43,594 bases of DNA from sequence record OZ035783.1; one strand, written 5' to 3'. This DNA comes from Kagunavirus PDP21P8. This document shows positions 1 to 43,594 of the stretch, piece after piece. Each line of letters begins with the position of its first letter. Positions within the stretch are counted from its first letter, which is position 1. The translations under genes and the position numbers were made by a program. The notes beneath the pieces were generated by a model that was not told the origin of the DNA, did not search any database, and was given only the letters and a program-made list of their open reading frames with translations.

Positions 1-29
1 GTAACAACGAATATGGGCGAGGTAGAGGA

Positions 30-1280
30 ATGAGTATTCAGCTATCTGCACCCCAGGCACTGTTCCTGAATTGCGATAACAAATACAAAGCCTATGTCGG
101 CGGCTTTGGCAGCGGCAAGACATTCGTAGGCTGCCTTGACCTGCTTACGTTTATGCTCAAGCACCCCGGTACGCGCCTGGGCTACTTCGGCCCTACATAT
201 CCGGCTATCCGCGACATCTTCTACCCGACATTCGAGGAAGCTGCTAACCTGCTAGGCCTTGATGTGCTGGTTAAATCCGGCGACAAAGAAGTCGTTGTCA
301 CACGCGGTAAGACAGTGCTCGGGACGGTTATCTGCCGTTCTATGGATAATCCTGGCTCGATAGTTGGCTTCAAAATCGCGGCTGCGGTCGTCGACGAGTT
401 GGACGTATTGAGTCGCGAGAAAGCGGAGCTGGCGTGGAACAAAATCGTCGCCCGTATGCGCCTTGTTATCCCTGGCGTAACTAACCACATCTCCGTCACC
501 ACGACGCCGGAAGGGTTCAAGTTCGTCTATGCCAAGTTCAAAGAGAACCCGACGCCGAGTTACTCAATGGTGCAGGCTTCCACACACGAGAATGCACGTT
601 TCCTGCCGCCGGATTACATCAGCTCGCTCACAGAGACTTACCCGGCGCAGTTGATTAACGCGTATCTGAACGGCGAGTTCGTCAACCTGACCTCCGGCAG
701 CGTCTACTACGCGTATGACCGCCGTAAGCACCGCAGCAAAGAGACAATTCAACCGGGCGACACTCTGTACATCGGCCAGGACTTCAACGTCACGAAGAAC
801 GCCAGCGCCGTGTACGTGCAACGTAAAGACGGCTGGCACGCGGTAGCCGAGCTGAAAGGCCTGTTCGATACGCCGGACACCGTGCGTGTAATTACTGAGA
901 AGTGGAAGTCGCAAGGCCACCGCATCGTCGTTTACCCTGATGCAAGTGGTAAGAACCGCAAGACCAACTCGGCATCAATCTCAGATATTGCATTACTTCA
1001 GCAGGCCGGGTTTGATGTTCGAGCTAAATCCGCCAACCCACCGGTTAAAGACCGTGTTTTAGCCGTGAATACCGCACTGGAAAAAGGTAAGCTGTGGGTT
1101 AACGACCACTTATGCCCAGAGATAGCGAAGACGCTGGAGCAGCAGGCATATGATGATAACGGAGAGCCTGCTAAAGACGGCATCATCGACCATATGGCGG
1201 ATGCTCTCGGCTATCCTGTAGTTTACGAGATGCCAGTGGTTAAACCAGTAATCAACATCCCGGTGACTTTCGCACTTTAA
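30..1280 (+). CDS. terL: terminase large subunit
   Basis: 416 aa; Walker-A-like GGFGSGKT near N-terminus; first gene of the structural block; its ATG overlaps the stop of the terS-like frame if the window ends are joined. Confidence 0.8.
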   Translation: MSIQLSAPQALFLNCDNKYKAYVGGFGSGKTFVGCLDLLTFMLKHPGTRLGYFGPTYPAIRDIFYPTFEEAANLLGLDVLVKSGDKEVVVTRGKTVLGTVICRSMDNPGSIVGFKIAAAVVDELDVLSREKAELAWNKIVARMRLVIPGVTNHISVTTTPEGFKFVYAKFKENPTPSYSMVQASTHENARFLPPDYISSLTETYPAQLINAYLNGEFVNLTSGSVYYAYDRRKHRSKETIQPGDTLYIGQDFNVTKNASAVYVQRKDGWHAVAELKGLFDTPDTVRVITEKWKSQGHRIVVYPDASGKNRKTNSASISDIALLQQAGFDVRAKSANPPVKDRVLAVNTALEKGKLWVNDHLCPEIAKTLEQQAYDDNGEPAKDGIIDHMADALGYPVVYEMPVVKPVINIPVTFAL

Positions 1281-4809: not shown

Positions 4810-5004
4810 GAGCTTGTGAAGTATGAACAAGCGACCGCGGCGCGGGCAGGTAACGGAGCGGGACGTAAGTCCTGAGTGTAGTTACGCTGACGCGTTCGGA
4901 AGGGCCATACTCTATTGCTTGTGTAAAAAGTAACTGGTTTACTGAGATTACGCCGTTTCTATGTTTAAATGATAAGGACTAGCGCCCCGCTTTATGGCGG
5001 GGCT
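4810..5004 (+). ncRNA. candidate short transcript (ncRNA or mRNA of a 36-aa peptide)
   Basis: ~200 nt between putative promoter 4775-4803 and terminator 4982-5010; only ORF is 36 codons (4823-4933) with a weak RBS. Confidence 0.2.
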
Positions 5005-7374: not shown

Positions 7375-7399
7375 GAGAGGGGCTTCGGTCCCTCTTTTC
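7375..7399 (+). terminator. rho-independent terminator
   Basis: AGAGGG-loop-CCCTCT hairpin followed by TTTT. Confidence 0.6.
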
Positions 7400-11766: not shown

Positions 11767-11810
11767 CTTGTGGTATAAGAAGTGTAAAGGATAGCTTTAG
11801 CGGGCGAAAA

Positions 11811-11839
11811 AGAGAGGGGTCGTGCCCTCTCTTTCCTTT
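11811..11839 (+). terminator. rho-independent terminator
   Basis: AGAGAGGG-gtcgtg-CCCTCTCT hairpin then TTCCTTT. Confidence 0.6.
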
Positions 11840-14865: not shown

Positions 14866-15227
14866 AAGCGCTGTATGAATTTGCGCAATGGTGCTTTGTC
14901 GACCGCCACAAACGTAAGCAATTCGACGACATAGCGGCAGGCCACCAGGCGGCTTTGATTGCAATGGGCGTGATTAAAGAACCGCAGATGAAAGAAGCGA
15001 CGGGGCCTGAATGCCCCGTTTCTCTTATCGACGTGTTCGAGAAATACCGTGCCATTAAATTCCTACAGCGCGAAACAGATGATACTATCGTTATAATCCC
15101 GCGCGATGCGCTCAAATGGCAAGATTTGGTAGCGTTTCGTGATGTCGCCGGTTACGGCATAAGTTTGTTCGAAGCCGAGGTTATCATGGGCTTAGACGGA
15201 ATATTTGAGGGCAGAGAAGATGGCTGA
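14826..15227 (+). CDS. tail assembly chaperone -1 frameshift extension
   Basis: -1 frame is open from 14826 (40 nt overlap with upstream ORF) with no ATG until 14964; candidate slip site G GAA AAG at 14856-14862. Confidence 0.4.
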   Translation, partial: ASHRQSRETLGKVKALYEFAQWCFVDRHKRKQFDDIAAGHQAALIAMGVIKEPQMKEATGPECPVSLIDVFEKYRAIKFLQRETDDTIVIIPRDALKWQDLVAFRDVAGYGISLFEAEVIMGLDGIFEGREDG

Positions 15228-27208: not shown

Positions 27209-29482
27209 TTACTTAGCATAACGGTACACCTCTCCCCCAGCCCATGTTAACGGGAACCCTTCGGCCCACTCAGGTAATGAGCATAGCAGGTCACCCATCT
27301 CTTTAACCGTGTACTCTGGCGTGTCTGGCGTTTCGGCAACACATTCGTCATGTACGTGGAGTACAATTGGGTAGCCCGCCGCCTCGACCGTCAGGAGTCC
27401 GTTAACCAGTAAATCACGGCACAACGCCTGGATGATGTTTTCACACAATTTTCCGCCGTGGGTGTACAAAGTTGTCCACTGGCGGGTGGTCTGATTTTCA
27501 CCCTGATACTTAATGCGGACGTTAGTAGTAACGCGCCCATCCTCGTCAGTCTCTTTAGTGACGCTTAAGCCTATGCCAGGGTAGGACATGATGCGCCCAG
27601 ACGGCAGTTCCACGCACAACCACCAACCCGGAACCGGATTACCGTGGTTGTCTTTTTCTTTGGTACGCCAGATGCGGATGGCTCTGTCGCCGTTAAGGCG
27701 TACTCGGGCCCCCGCCCAAAACTCTCGTCCCGGATTTCTGATGGCGGCTATCACCGAATCCTTAAGGTCATTCCAGAATTTCACTGTTTCCGGATGGGCT
27801 TCCCGCCACATGCGCTTAATGGCGTCACAGGTGCGCCAGACTTCTTTAGGCAGCACATAAGAGGCCCGTTCATCTTTTTTACCAGGCTTTGGCGGGCGTT
27901 TAGCCTCCTGAATTCTGGCCCATTCGTAGCCACGGGCGGTAGCCGCCCAAATGTGGTCGGGGAACGTGCCCCGCATTGTCTCTGTCATTTTAAAGAGGTC
28001 CAGCCCGTAAGTTTTAGCCATAGTCATAAAAGCCCCTACGCCCCCCTCGTAGCCGAGGCCGAGTTCGCAACATTTCCCGACCTGACGTAGGTCCTTACGG
28101 GTGGCTTTTAGTTCTACGGGGTCCATGCCAAACATCTTGCCCGCGGTGGCGCAATAAATATCAATCCCTGCGCGGAAGGTCTCAAGCGCGGATGTCTCCC
28201 CCGCGGTCCAGGCCAACCCGCGCCCTTCTACGTTTGAGTAGTCGGCAACGAGCAACTTATTACCCTTTTCAGGGATGATGCAACTGCGAACAGTCGAGGC
28301 TGTCAGCTTGGATACGTCGAAACGACGGTGCGCCCGACCCTTTAGCAGCAGATTGATGCCGAACGATAGGGGGTTGAGACGACGGTTCCAGTCTTCGTCG
28401 GACTCCCACGGCTGGCGTACAAGTTTCTTCTCCTCGTTAGTCGGGTCATCATGATAGTACCCGCGCGACAGGTTCTGCGGCTGGAACCCTTTACCCGCAA
28501 ATCGTAAAGTGCGCTTTGCCCCACCGTACTGGATGCAACCGCGGCGGCGGCCGTCTTTGGACCGTCCTAGCAGGAGCGGTTTGTATTTTGTCGACGCCGT
28601 GGAGGCCGCGCCGAGGCGCATCTCAATGATTGTGCGCGCATCGTCAGGTAAGTCGTCGTCCTCTAGCAAACCTTCGAGCGTTGCTTTCTGCGCATTATAG
28701 ATATTGTAGGCCGGTGCCAGCTCCCGAAGGATTGGCAGGAAGTCTTTACCCGTTAGCTTCCCGCCAAATTTAGCCCTGGCCTCGTTTTTTAGCTCTTGCT
28801 TGTGGCGTTCAACTGCTGCTACCGCCGCCTCAGCAAGAGCCGCATCAACAAAGAAGCCTCGGTCGTTGATTAACTGGTCAAGTTCAAGTACACGGTCCTC
28901 GAAATCGGAGTTACCCCAACGTGGCAGCTTATGGAAGACTTCACGCATCGCTGTGATGTCGCTCACGGCGTACTTGATGAACAGCGCCCATTCGTCCGGG
29001 TGCGTTTCGGCGGTGTAGCGGCGGATTTTATAGTTCTTCGGGGTTGGTTTGGAGAAACGCTGAATCAGAGCCTTGCCACGTTTATCTTTCGCGTTGTCGG
29101 CGGATACGCCCAGCACTTCGCATAATGCGTCAAGTGAACCCGGCAGCGCGTGGCGAAACGCCCAAATCATAGTGTCAATGGTGTTGCTGACCGGAATATC
29201 GAAGCCCCAGCAGTTCTTCATGATGAGCCTATCGAAAAGTCCACCGTTATGCCACACCATCTTAATGCGACTGTTTGGCTTCACCAGACGGCGTAACGCG
29301 CGGTGTAAATCTCCCGGCATGTCGCTGCCGTCAGTGCAGTCCCATACCTGAACAGGCTCGTCATCAAAAGCATAGGTGCAGATGAGCACTTCGGTAGTCG
29401 GGTGTTCGGCGTAAGCATAGGAGCCGACTTTCTTCAAATCGGCTTCGGAGAAGGTTTCAAAGTCTAAGAACAGATAACTCAT
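27209..29482 (-). CDS. DNA polymerase, family A, with 3'-5' exonuclease domain
   Basis: FLDFETFS exo motif; pol motif A VADYSNVE, motif B RQVGKCCELGLGYEGG, motif C LHVHDE. Confidence 0.85.
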   Translation of the reverse strand: MSYLFLDFETFSEADLKKVGSYAYAEHPTTEVLICTYAFDDEPVQVWDCTDGSDMPGDLHRALRRLVKPNSRIKMVWHNGGLFDRLIMKNCWGFDIPVSNTIDTMIWAFRHALPGSLDALCEVLGVSADNAKDKRGKALIQRFSKPTPKNYKIRRYTAETHPDEWALFIKYAVSDITAMREVFHKLPRWGNSDFEDRVLELDQLINDRGFFVDAALAEAAVAAVERHKQELKNEARAKFGGKLTGKDFLPILRELAPAYNIYNAQKATLEGLLEDDDLPDDARTIIEMRLGAASTASTKYKPLLLGRSKDGRRRGCIQYGGAKRTLRFAGKGFQPQNLSRGYYHDDPTNEEKKLVRQPWESDEDWNRRLNPLSFGINLLLKGRAHRRFDVSKLTASTVRSCIIPEKGNKLLVADYSNVEGRGLAWTAGETSALETFRAGIDIYCATAGKMFGMDPVELKATRKDLRQVGKCCELGLGYEGGVGAFMTMAKTYGLDLFKMTETMRGTFPDHIWAATARGYEWARIQEAKRPPKPGKKDERASYVLPKEVWRTCDAIKRMWREAHPETVKFWNDLKDSVIAAIRNPGREFWAGARVRLNGDRAIRIWRTKEKDNHGNPVPGWWLCVELPSGRIMSYPGIGLSVTKETDEDGRVTTNVRIKYQGENQTTRQWTTLYTHGGKLCENIIQALCRDLLVNGLLTVEAAGYPIVLHVHDECVAETPDTPEYTVKEMGDLLCSLPEWAEGFPLTWAGGEVYRYAK

Positions 29483-37036: not shown

Positions 37037-37187
37037 GTTATGAGAGAAGCATTCGAACGGTGGGCTGTCGTAGAGGGTCTGCCGGTTAACAAGGGTTCGA
37101 AGAAATAGTACCTGAACGTTAAGACGCGTCTCGCATGGCGGGCGTGGAAAGCTGGTGTGCAATCCTTGATTGAAAGAGGTGTGAGAT

Positions 37188-39681: not shown

Positions 39682-39990
39682 TTGGATAAATTTACTGAAA
39701 CAGTGACGGGCTGGCTTCTCGCTGCCGCACTCGCCGGAGGGGTCATCGGACTACGACAACATAAGTCCGCTATTTCCGGCCCTATCGACGGATTCTGCTT
39801 TATTGCTACTGGCTTCACTTGCGCCGTATTCGGTGCACCTCTCGCTGCCCAATGGTTTGGCATCACAGGCGAGCGTGAAATCGCTGGCCTCGGATTCATC
39901 ATTGCCATTCTCTGGATGCCTATTTATTCCCGTCTCTCCGGTATTGTTGCCGGAGAATACATCTCACGTCGAGGAGGCCCGGATGAATGA
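39682..39990 (+). CDS. holin (putative)
   Basis: 102 aa with multiple TM segments, TTG start with SD GGAGGA; immediately upstream of endolysin. Confidence 0.55.
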   Translation: MDKFTETVTGWLLAAALAGGVIGLRQHKSAISGPIDGFCFIATGFTCAVFGAPLAAQWFGITGEREIAGLGFIIAILWMPIYSRLSGIVAGEYISRRGGPDE

Positions 39991-40255
39991 GTTATTCTGG
40001 TTCGCCGTAATGTTGGCGATGGGCGCTTCGTCCCTGTTCAACGTGTATAATGAATGTGTTGACGACGGGCTATTCGGTCGGGTGCTCTATATCCTGACTG
40101 CTATCGTCTGCGCCGCCGGATGTATCCACCTGTTACAGGGCAGCATGTCACCTACGCTGCCAGAAACCTTAATCACATTAGTTGCGCTGCGCCAGATTCG
40201 TCAGGCGTGGCTGTCATACGGAGGACATAAGCGTGTCTCGAAATATTTCAGATAA
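39983..40255 (+). CDS. lysis-associated membrane protein (holin/antiholin partner, putative)
   Basis: 90 aa, two TM segments, overlaps both neighbours. Confidence 0.4.
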   Translation: MNELFWFAVMLAMGASSLFNVYNECVDDGLFGRVLYILTAIVCAAGCIHLLQGSMSPTLPETLITLVALRQIRQAWLSYGGHKRVSKYFR

Positions 40256-40718
40256 TGGATTGCATTTTACCGCTGCGTTTGAGGGATTCCGTGGAACCGC
40301 GTATCGTGCTACACCAAACGAGAAGTACTTAACCACAGGCTACGGGCACTACGGGCCAGACGTGACCCCCGGTAAAACCATCACCCCGGGCCAAGGCCTC
40401 CTGTTACTGAATCGCGATATGGCTAAAGCCGTAGCTGCGGTTGATGCAGCAGCACACCATTCATTGACACAGGCACAGTTCGATGCAGTGTGCGACCTGG
40501 TGTATAACGCTGGTGCTGGTGCCATTGCGGCTACTACAGGCACGGGTAAGGCCCTGCGTTCCGGTGATATTTCGACGCTGCGGGCTAAGCTGACGCTGTT
40601 CATCAACCAGAACGGCAAACCGTTACTCGGCCTGCGTCGCCGTACCGCAGGCCGCCTGGCGCTGTTCGATGGTAAGCCGTGGCAAGAGGCTGAGGCTATC
40701 GGGAGGGCTGTTAAATGA
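40233..40718 (+). CDS. endolysin, GH24 lysozyme-like
   Basis: GTG 40233 with SD GGAGGA; AAFEGFRGTAY...TTGYGH matches phage lysozyme signature. Confidence 0.75.
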   Translation: MSRNISDNGLHFTAAFEGFRGTAYRATPNEKYLTTGYGHYGPDVTPGKTITPGQGLLLLNRDMAKAVAAVDAAAHHSLTQAQFDAVCDLVYNAGAGAIAATTGTGKALRSGDISTLRAKLTLFINQNGKPLLGLRRRTAGRLALFDGKPWQEAEAIGRAVK

Positions 40719-42273: not shown

Positions 42274-42545
42274 TTACCAGCATTCCGAACCTGATTAAAG
42301 AATTTGGCACGATGGCGGAGACATGTCGGCAAACCGGCATCAACGAAATGACGATTGCCAAGTACCGCAACGACGTGAACTGCGAGCGCCACGTAATTTA
42401 TAACAACCGTCTGATGACACATGTTAAGACAAGCCCGGTGTTATTCACGCGCCGGGGTATAACTAAAACTGAGCAACGCATTGCTAAAGAGGAGAGTGGG
42501 GATGAGCGAAAAACTATTGTTACTTATGCTGCATACGCTTCTTGA
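42270..42545 (+). CDS. putative DNA-binding protein
   Basis: TMAETCRQTGINEMTIAKYRN resembles an HTH. Confidence 0.4.
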   Translation: MITSIPNLIKEFGTMAETCRQTGINEMTIAKYRNDVNCERHVIYNNRLMTHVKTSPVLFTRRGITKTEQRIAKEESGDERKTIVTYAAYAS

Positions 42546-42702
42546 CGACAACGGGCAGGTGGTATTCCAGTTTATCGGGCGCGATGACCTCCTAATCGAC
42601 GTCTCTGATGGAACATTTGCTATTGGCGACGAGTTTGTAGAAAGAGGGGATGCGTTCCAGTATCTAAGCGATAATTACGACGTACTGGTAGATATTTGCT
42701 GA
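42502..42702 (+). CDS. small strongly acidic protein
   Basis: 66 aa, 14 Asp/Glu vs 3 Arg/Lys; SD AGAGGAGAG. Confidence 0.4.
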   Translation: MSEKLLLLMLHTLLDDNGQVVFQFIGRDDLLIDVSDGTFAIGDEFVERGDAFQYLSDNYDVLVDIC

Positions 42703-42817
42703 TGAGACTACTAATCATCCCTAACGCCCGGACCATTCCCGTAGCTAACGACCATTACGGCGGTGATGGTAAAAGAGCACCACGACATGGCATATACAAC
42801 TGATTGGAGAGCGAGAG

Positions 42818-42958
42818 ATGAAAGATATTCTGGATAAAATAAGTGACTGGATTGTAGCTAAACCATACCGGTATTGGGTCGCGCAATGGTTGCTGAACTG
42901 CGTTACGTTCTTCGCCGCATGTGTTACAATAGCCTTCGTATTTAAGGCTATCTCCTGA
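42818..42958 (+). CDS. small membrane protein (46 aa)
   Basis: SD TGGAGAG; C-terminal TM helix. Confidence 0.3.
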   Translation: MKDILDKISDWIVAKPYRYWVAQWLLNCVTFFAACVTIAFVFKAIS

Positions 42959-42963
42959 CCAAC

Positions 42964-42986
42964 AAGCCCTCTACGGAGGGCTTTTC
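42964..42986 (+). terminator. rho-independent terminator
   Basis: AGCCCTC-tacg-GAGGGCT followed by TTTT. Confidence 0.6.
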
Positions 42987-43016
42987 TGTACATCTCGCCT
43001 AATCCCCTTATATAAT
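42987..43016 (+). promoter_or_regulatory. putative promoter upstream of terS
   Basis: TGTACA-18 nt-TATAAT; followed by nested inverted repeats. Confidence 0.4.
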
Positions 43017-43081
43017 CCCTTTAGACGCGTAGGGCGCGTCTGATGCGCTCTGATGGTCAGACGCATATGCAAGGGGATTCT

Positions 43082-43594
43082 ATGAAGCTGAAACTTAAGC
43101 AGCCATCGCCTGAGGTGGTGCAAGCTGCACATGAAGAGGCTGTTAGTGCCAACCGTCGCCGTAAACGGCCGCGCGGCAAACAGAGCCTTTACCAGTCATC
43201 CCGTAATTCTGCGGCATTGTGGGACCCGGACTATTGTGACGAATTAATCGAGTTCTTCGACCGCACGTCGTGGGAACTTGTGCCTACGTCCAAGGGTGAC
43301 GAACGTCCGTTGATTCAGGATAAACCGCCATCACTGGCCCGCTTCGCCTTACACATCGGCGTCACTATCCCGATTATTAAGCTGTGGCTGCGTGAGATTC
43401 CTGCATTTGCAGAAGCCTGGGAGACAGCGCAGGCGCTGGAGGAGGCGTATTTCACTGAGACAGGCGCGGCCGGTATCTCTGCTACATTTGCTGCCGCTAA
43501 GCTGGGCCTTAGCAAAGAGAAACCGGTCGAATCCGCCGAAGAAACAGCACCGACTGAGATTATTTTCAGTGTTGCAGAGCCTGTAGGTAAAATT
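43082..43594 (+). CDS. terS: terminase small subunit-like protein (3'-truncated by window end)
   Basis: open frame from ATG 43082 to window end; PPSLARFALHIGVTIPIIKLW resembles terS DNA-binding region; frame continues at nt 1 and stops at 31-33 on the terL ATG. Confidence 0.5.
   Translation, partial: MKLKLKQPSPEVVQAAHEEAVSANRRRKRPRGKQSLYQSSRNSAALWDPDYCDELIEFFDRTSWELVPTSKGDERPLIQDKPPSLARFALHIGVTIPIIKLWLREIPAFAEAWETAQALEEAYFTETGAAGISATFAAAKLGLSKEKPVESAEETAPTEIIFSVAEPVGKI

Follow-up and report, generated by a model that had tools for sequence, protein, structure and literature searches.

A conserved two-hairpin leader ahead of terS in Kagunavirus and related phages, a candidate element for control of terminase translation

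How virulent siphoviruses regulate the quantity and timing of their terminase is, to our knowledge, poorly understood. The closest described arrangement is that of the T4 genes e, soc, 49 and I-TevI, in which a late promoter lies within a hairpin sequestering the ribosome-binding site (PMC3014915). A second described system, the put RNAs of phage HK022, comprises approximately 70 nt with two long bulged stems (PMC9378689). The locus analysed here lies directly ahead of the small terminase subunit gene and resembles the T4 genes in that its promoter lies within, or closely follows, the 5' strand of a predicted helix covering the Shine-Dalgarno sequence or AUG, and in that longer upstream transcripts are predicted to be silent while local ones would be open, a prediction made here from sequence and predicted folds. 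Pairing of the Shine-Dalgarno sequence with an upstream segment, as in the T4 type, was found in the predicted folds of 14 of 17 lineage representatives. Unlike the gp55-dependent late promoters of T4, however, the promoter is of the host sigma-70 type; the helix strands are not those of a single stem-loop but lie about 50 nt apart, bridged by two conserved hairpins to give a three-way junction; and the gene concerned is terS of siphoviruses. The class of mechanism is known, and the motif represents a new, widely distributed variant of it; no published description of the terS leader was found in the literature. Should read-through transcripts indeed be silenced, the promoter-inside-hairpin logic of T4 would extend to siphoviruses that depend on the host polymerase.

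The window, meaning the whole stretch of DNA that was analysed (43,594 bp), is a complete, circularly permuted Kagunavirus genome (Guernseyvirinae, K1G-like coliphages), for which megablast returned 88-92% identity to K1G, K1H, K1ind1-3 and many others. Its terS gene encodes a small terminase subunit of 181 amino acids and runs across the ends of the window, and its stop codon overlaps the start of terL, which suggests translational coupling such that terL would be translated after terS. Upstream of terS and on the same strand are the genes for holin (39682-39990) and endolysin (40182-40718), together with a string of small genes that includes a NinH-like gene. Downstream, the plus strand of the late operon carries GC-rich, intergenic, terminator-like hairpins with T-rich tails at 2771-2791, 4984-5003, 7375-7396, 11809-11834 and 14999-15020, and few promoter-like sites are seen before about 10.4 kb. 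The features on which the analysis rests are as follows, P1 denoting the helix that would enclose the two hairpins.

42964-42989, plus strand: intrinsic terminator, stem 42964-71/42976-83 with loop TACG, then TTTTCT
42987-42992, plus strand: TGTACA, the -35 hexamer of the terS promoter, which does not vary in Kagunavirus and Jerseyvirus
43001-43009, plus strand: distal left arm AATCCCCTT, in the promoter spacer
43011-43016, plus strand: -10 hexamer TATAAT (TATAAT or TACAAT in 17 of 17 lineage representatives)
43014-43022, plus strand: proximal anti-Shine-Dalgarno arm AATCCCTTT, made up of the final three nucleotides of the -10 together with the discriminator; left strand of P1
43023-43041, plus strand: hairpin 1, 8 bp including U43030·G43034, triloop AGG at 43031-33
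43043-47/43062-66, plus strand: outer stem of hairpin 2, followed by bulged C43048
43049-53/43057-61, plus strand: inner stem of hairpin 2, triloop UGG at 43054-56
43071-43079, plus strand: right arm AAGGGGATT, Shine-Dalgarno AAGGGG and spacer; right strand of P1
43082-43594, plus strand: first 171 codons of terS, the rest being at window positions 1-32
1-32, plus strand: last 10 codons and stop of terS, the stop overlapping the terL ATG as ATGA at 30-33

The upstream lysis and small-gene block is closed by the intrinsic terminator (AAGCCCTC-tacg-GAGGGCTT at 42964-42983), whose stem changes in a compensatory manner among relatives (AAGCCCTC/GAGGGCTT, AAGCCCGC/GCGGGCTT and GCCCGC/GCGGGC). A simple terminator scan missed the 42964-42989 hairpin because its T-tract rule was strict. 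In phage demigod the loss of TTCTGT has removed most of the terminator T-run and changed the -35. The promoter-like site reported in a preliminary description of this DNA, TGTACA-18-TATAAT, was present as claimed (42987-92, an 18-nt spacer and 43011-16). A -10 hexamer accompanied by a -35 at 16-18 bp was found in all Guernseyvirinae and Eiauvirus lineages examined, the spacer being 17 bp in most lineages, 18 in the window and 16 in eiAU. Outside Kagunavirus and Jerseyvirus the -35 reads TTGCCT, TTGCCA or TTGCTA, with 17-bp spacing, and Dhillonvirus SP1 has an extended -10 (TGnTATAAT) in place of a recognisable -35. Because the -10 hexamer is kept although its possible pairing partner varies, it is, by its pattern of substitution, conserved as a promoter element and not as a helix strand. 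Across lineages the distance from the -10 to the start of hairpin 1 is 5-9 nt, most often 7, which matches the usual position of a sigma-70 start, and transcription is predicted, from promoter geometry alone, to start at about 43023, the base of hairpin 1. In the Salmonella phage SGP007, a Kagunavirus-type promoter and spacer are joined to a Jerseyvirus-type leader, a hybrid layout that implies a recombination joint near +1.

Relatives were collected from four sources, namely IMG/VR relatives of TerS, pattern scans of viral and metagenome contigs, individual GenBank records, and contigs matching a five-sequence TerS alignment; the metagenome pattern scan yielded mostly chance matches and no new lineage. 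The terminator-to-terS region could be aligned in 451 GenBank phage records, with approximately 94% identity inside the genus Kagunavirus and approximately 76% when compared with Jerseyvirus. The same architecture was observed in Jerseyvirus, Cornellvirus, phiEap-2, Dhillonvirus (phage SP1) and Eiauvirus (eiAU), as well as in unclassified Guernseyvirinae of Klebsiella, Pantoea, Hafnia and Serratia and in two metagenomic lineages. The shared order begins with a GC-rich terminator hairpin and T-run, a -35, a 16-18-bp spacer and TATAAT/TACAAT, and continues with a discriminator some 7 nt long, hairpins 1 and 2 separated by 0-3 nt, a further 3-10 nt, the Shine-Dalgarno sequence and the terS ATG. 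In phiEap-2, whose TerS and TerL are 29% and 52% identical to those of the window, an 84-nt promoter-leader segment retains about 80% DNA identity between flanks that cannot be aligned, forming an island of conservation. Compact (about 45 nt), deeply conserved and strongly covarying, this element at the head of the packaging operon offers a way into the control of late genes. The phages that carry it infect E. coli, Salmonella, Klebsiella, Serratia, Pantoea, Hafnia and Edwardsiella, and many of them are candidates for therapy or biocontrol or chassis for synthetic biology.

Of the two inner inverted repeats that had been reported, the first (AGACGCG/CGCGTCT) was confirmed at 43023-41. The second was also present, at 43043-66, but it is not a perfect repeat, since its left arm of 11 nt contains an extra C (C43048), which is bulged, and its right arm has 10 nt (ATGCG(C)TCTGA and TCAGACGCAT). 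A loopless palindrome corresponding to the half-site of the hairpin 1 arm, AGACGCGTCT, was seen at 37122-37131. Perfect inverted repeats of 7 bp or longer number four in the 126-nt intergenic stretch; none of 1000 dinucleotide-preserving shuffles reached that number (mean 0.3), and the chance that a shuffled stretch held a repeat of 9 bp or longer was 0.018. When variants were folded individually, 30 of 31 (at least 12 lineages) formed two adjacent triloop hairpins. A stem test was then applied to 12 lineage representatives spanning Guernseyvirinae, Dhillonvirus and Eiauvirus, with pairs indexed outward from the loops. Canonical pairs occupied 97% of the stem cells in these 12 lineages, as compared with 18-55% when the 3' partner was slid by 1-3 positions and 68 ± 3% when columns were shuffled (none of 500 shuffles gave as high a value), and changes on both sides of the pair were found at 10 of the 12 stem positions. 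Both stems were recovered, with eight of 11 pairs compensated, by RNAalifold run on an unsupervised MAFFT alignment.

The nature of the exceptions was also informative. Stem cells that depart from Watson-Crick pairing comprised 25 G·U against a single A·C, and in 21 of 22 sequences the plus strand gave a more stable fold than the complementary strand. The excess of G·U over A·C and the better folding of the plus strand indicate a sense-strand RNA structure, as neither a duplex-DNA palindrome nor a symmetric protein site would give such a strand asymmetry. Taken as comparative evidence, these substitutions show that the inner repeats are selected RNA hairpins on the terS sense strand. Between Kagunavirus and Jerseyvirus the pair C43050-G43060 is replaced by A-U, a compensatory change within hairpin 2, and an alternative attenuator-like pairing of GCGTCTGA with TCAGACGC (43036-43/43057-64) was rejected, being broken by this same change. 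The loops behave differently from the stems: that of hairpin 1 is AGG or UGG (AGA once), and that of hairpin 2 is UGG closed by A-U (with single instances of CGG and of closure by G·U), so that N-G-G triloops are nearly invariant while the stems covary. The constancy of the loops suggests that they are read in a sequence-specific manner. Only one pair of N-G-G-triloop hairpins was returned when the 43.6-kb genome was scanned for such pairs, and a search of 42500-43594 against Rfam 15 at E values up to 10 gave three chance-level matches, none of them on the hairpins.

The preliminary description had further placed both inner repeats within a perfect 9-bp inverted repeat (43001-09/43071-79), by which read-through transcripts could sequester the terS Shine-Dalgarno sequence, AAGGGG, located 5 nt before the ATG at 43082. 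The repeat is perfect in the window but not conserved: among 35 distinct Kagunavirus-type sequences it is perfect in 23, while in the other 12 the distal arm is broken (by changes such as AATCACCTT, AATCCACTT, AATACCCTT or a deletion), in no case with a matching change in the right arm. No counterpart of the distal arm was present in Jerseyvirus or the other lineages. The distal arm probably represents one of the two halves of a tandem duplication of 13 nt, a direct repeat of TAATCCCCTTATA (43000-12) and TAATCCCTTTAGA (43013-25), and the second direct copy of the left arm, at 43014-22, had been overlooked. At least one anti-Shine-Dalgarno copy is intact in 31 of the 35 Kagunavirus variants, and both copies vary within Kagunavirus without compensation. 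As the 43014-22 segment spans the -10 and discriminator and so precedes the predicted +1, it could be present in read-through transcripts alone. The anti-Shine-Dalgarno segment occupies this position in all lineages, between the -10 and a +1 predicted from promoter geometry, and in most of them the end of the -10 and the discriminator are complementary to the lineage's own Shine-Dalgarno region. The left and right arms of P1 are as follows.

Kagunavirus: AAUCCCUUU / AAGGGGAUU
Jerseyvirus: CAAUCCU / AGGAUUG
SE1 (Cornellvirus): AAUCUCCU / AGGAGAUU
phiEap-2: UAAUCACCUG / CAGGAGAUUA
Lineage L260: AACCUC / GAGGUU
Lineage L261: GAACCU / AGGUUC
Klebsiella phages: CCCAUUA / UAAUGGG

P1 enclosing both hairpins as a three-way junction was present in the minimum-energy folds of 14 of 17 representatives. 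Shuffling of the left arm gave p ≤0.05 in six of 13 lineages, with a mean z of -2.0, these p-values not being independent as the lineages share ancestry; by this test P1 was weak or absent in L257, Eiauvirus, Pantoea AH01, FSL SP-031 and Serratia. Cognate left arms were modestly better than non-cognate ones (-5.1 vs -3.8 kcal/mol), and compensation across lineages was seen, for example from AAUC/GAUU to AACC/GGUU. Part of the complementarity comes free, as a pyrimidine-rich discriminator is set opposite a purine-rich Shine-Dalgarno sequence. Accessibility was modelled by comparing a transcript that begins at hairpin 1 with one begun 70 nt further upstream; the mean unpaired probability of the Shine-Dalgarno sequence over 11 lineages, obtained from the partition function, was 0.62 for the promoter-initiated and 0.31 for the read-through transcript, with a drop of at least two-fold in eight of the 11. 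On this evidence P1 is plausible and recurrent, yet far less secure than the hairpins. The earlier proposal of sequestration on read-through is partly supported: it was right in kind, the inner repeats being sense-strand RNA hairpins and an anti-Shine-Dalgarno segment recurring that could pair with the ribosome-binding site in read-through transcripts, but wrong in its choice of 43001-09 as the arm.

The explanation we favour, in which our confidence is evenly divided between belief and doubt, is that the region acts as a terminator-promoter-leader unit in which the ribosome-binding site would be hidden in read-through transcripts and open in local ones. The packaging and morphogenesis operon would then be headed by a four-part control region composed of the intrinsic terminator, a sigma-70 promoter, a leader of about 59 nt that opens with the two adjacent triloop hairpins, and the terS ribosome-binding site. 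Local transcripts would start at the base of hairpin 1 (about 43023) and so would carry a 5'-terminal stem-loop, a structure that in E. coli protects mRNAs from 5'-end-dependent decay. Their Shine-Dalgarno sequence would be free, allowing terS to be translated, with terL following by way of the ATGA overlap. Read-through from upstream of the terminator would yield transcripts that also hold the pyrimidine-rich segment 43014-22 and, in Kagunavirus, its duplicate 43001-09; the anti-Shine-Dalgarno segment would pair with the Shine-Dalgarno region, and the two hairpins would clamp a three-way junction, with the ribosome-binding site buried in it. The making of terminase would in this way be tied to the firing of its own promoter. 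That read-through occurs and in what amount, that translation and mRNA stability are affected, and that the loops have a reader is what we infer. Overall, the region looks like an element controlling translation or mRNA rather than a DNA packaging site.

Neither a stabilising role nor a clamp accounts for the invariant loop sequences. An alternative, tentatively entertained and on balance improbable, is that the hairpins form an operator at which a hypothetical trans-acting factor reads the N-G-G triloops and sets the translation or stability of the terminase message, P1 being secondary or incidental. This factor might be TerS, inherited together with the element and acting on its own message, or else the ribosome or an RNA-binding protein of the host. 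The loops are sequence-invariant whereas every stem position covaries across three phage taxa, as would be expected of such an operator, and the element always accompanies one TerS family, whose members possess a basic N-terminal stretch. In the window this arginine-rich stretch, RRRKRPRGK, lies at amino acids 24-33 of TerS (window positions approximately 43151-43180) and could, judged by its composition, bind nucleic acid; R25 and G32 are invariant in a nine-member TerS alignment. We know of no TerS protein for which RNA binding has been described. A Pfam search of TerS gave no match, and a profile search against solved structures gave a weak match to the Sf6 gene 1 protein (E = 0.03), which was uninformative as a clue to the position of pac. 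Against CsrA as the factor, sites for this protein require a GGA motif, and the loops, which read AGG(G) and UGG(U), lack this core; a CsrA-binding leader was rejected, GGA being found solely in the Shine-Dalgarno region. The operator reading is compatible with the terminator-promoter-leader explanation and need not replace it. A broader formulation, that the hairpins constitute an undescribed family of cis-regulatory RNA in Guernseyvirinae, Dhillonvirus and Eiauvirus with a specific partner, either RNA polymerase, which the nascent RNA would enable to pass the late-operon terminators (a put-like function with unrelated sequence), or TerS or a host protein, whose binding would set the level of terminase, is likewise considered unlikely, though not negligible. 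A dedicated reader of the loops, if there is one, may represent a new interaction between RNA and protein or RNA and RNA polymerase.

Equally doubtful is the possibility that the hairpins are a mere 5'-terminal stabiliser and insulator of the late mRNA, similar to the ompA 5' UTR, with the anti-Shine-Dalgarno complementarity a by-product of base composition. The onset of hairpin 1 at the predicted +1 in nearly all lineages is what such a stabiliser would show, and P1 is without statistical support in about half of the lineages, while both of its arms drift within Kagunavirus. However, the cross-lineage compensations in P1 and the significant shuffle tests in six lineages argue against a by-product, and a generic stabiliser would require neither invariant loops nor a second hairpin with a conserved bulge. 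In comparison with 5'-terminal stem-loop stabilisers of the ompA type, the phage leader is also much shorter and its loop sequences are invariant.

A further reading, which appears rather remote, is that the leader is a cis-acting RNA that modifies the RNA polymerase from which it emerges, in the manner of HK022 put, for which read-through of terminators depends on the zinc-binding domain of the RNA polymerase beta-prime subunit, and so enables the enzyme to pass the terminator-like hairpins of the 23-kb late operon. As in putL, two stem-loops 0-3 nt apart directly follow a promoter (PMC9378689); terminator-like hairpins stand at 2771, 4984, 7375, 11809 and 14999 on the plus strand of the operon, where intervening promoter-like sites are few; and the loops are invariant over hosts that share RNA polymerase. 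The element, however, consists of simple hairpins totalling 44-50 nt, as opposed to the approximately 72 nt of put with its triplex and bulges (PMC9378689), and the compensatory change from C-G to A-U supports hairpin 2 and not a put-like pseudoknot. The Kagunavirus leader and HK022 putL (located at about 28233-28312 on the minus strand of HK022) do share AGACG...GGCGCGUCU...AUGCG after the promoter, but the similarity is not significant: alignment to putL gave P values of 0.03-0.9 against shuffles, depending on the lineage, and alignment to putR gave P ≥0.6, with no lineage matching; in most lineages the resemblance is lacking altogether. Homology to put by way of the common 9-mer GGCGCGTCT (AGACG...GGCGCGTCT...ATGCG) was rejected for the same region, since the scores lay within the shuffle range and putR gave nothing; Rfam contains no put family. 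As several plus-strand terminator-like hairpins are present in the late operon, an analogy of function is conceivable, at low probability.

The pac sites of the headful phages SPP1 and P22, which lie close to or within terS, are DNA sites made up of asymmetric or repeated boxes. The suggestion, also raised in the preliminary description, that the inverted repeats are such a site, at which terminase would recognise the concatemer and initiate headful packaging, draws on the terS-adjacent position, which resembles that of SPP1 pacL, on the co-occurrence of the element with one TerS family, and on headful packaging in the subfamily, some members of which are assigned to the pac type by PhageTerm (PMC10783031, PMC6776780). 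It is nevertheless very improbable and is not supported by the sequence comparison, for the RNA-type pattern of substitution, in which stems are kept through G·U (25 against one A·C) on the sense strand only, is unlike duplex DNA recognition and argues against such a role, and stem sequences are wholly replaced between lineages; the element shares its place beside terS with the SPP1 and P22 sites, but evolves as a strand-specific RNA structure. GenBank records that start near the element do so conventionally (PMC6753286), and record starts equivalent to 43016, 43031, 43043 and 43072 were therefore rejected as mapped ends, genomes being opened before terS by convention (PMC6753286). Published PhageTerm analyses comprise a P1-like pac call given with no coordinates (PMC10783031), random ends in Se_F1 (PMC9409062) and no obvious termini in fBC-Eco01 (PMC9825357). 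In the literature on the Kagunavirus/Jerseyvirus subfamily, headful packaging and permuted or random ends are reported, and no mapped packaging site was found.

Two coding interpretations of the leader were also considered and rejected. An N-terminally extended TerS initiated at the ATG at 43043 has an open frame in Kagunavirus, Jerseyvirus and phiEap-2, but a single additional C breaks this frame in phiEap-2-like contigs, a stop lies within it in Cornellvirus, and all differences between genera within the extension are non-synonymous, matching the compensation in the stems. This hairpin 2 ATG is annotated as the terS start in SE124_3H4, NBSal006, demigod and FSL SP-031; because of the broken frame and the stop, the GenBank terS starts placed there are probably mis-annotations, and a practical use of the conserved leader is the correction of the terS start in several such records. 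A leader peptide of 10 codons, from the AUG at 43053 in the loop of hairpin 2 to the TGA at 43083-85, has no Shine-Dalgarno sequence and an erratic end, as the open reading frame stops before the Shine-Dalgarno sequence, overlaps, or is fused in frame, depending on the lineage. The loop AUG itself is kept in most lineages, being ACG in L259 and GUG in AH01, and in the window the TGA of this frame overlaps the terS ATG. Among the records inspected, PV052269.1, a Jersey-like Salmonella siphovirus, is filed by GenBank under Rountreeviridae/Minhovirus, which looks like an error of classification.
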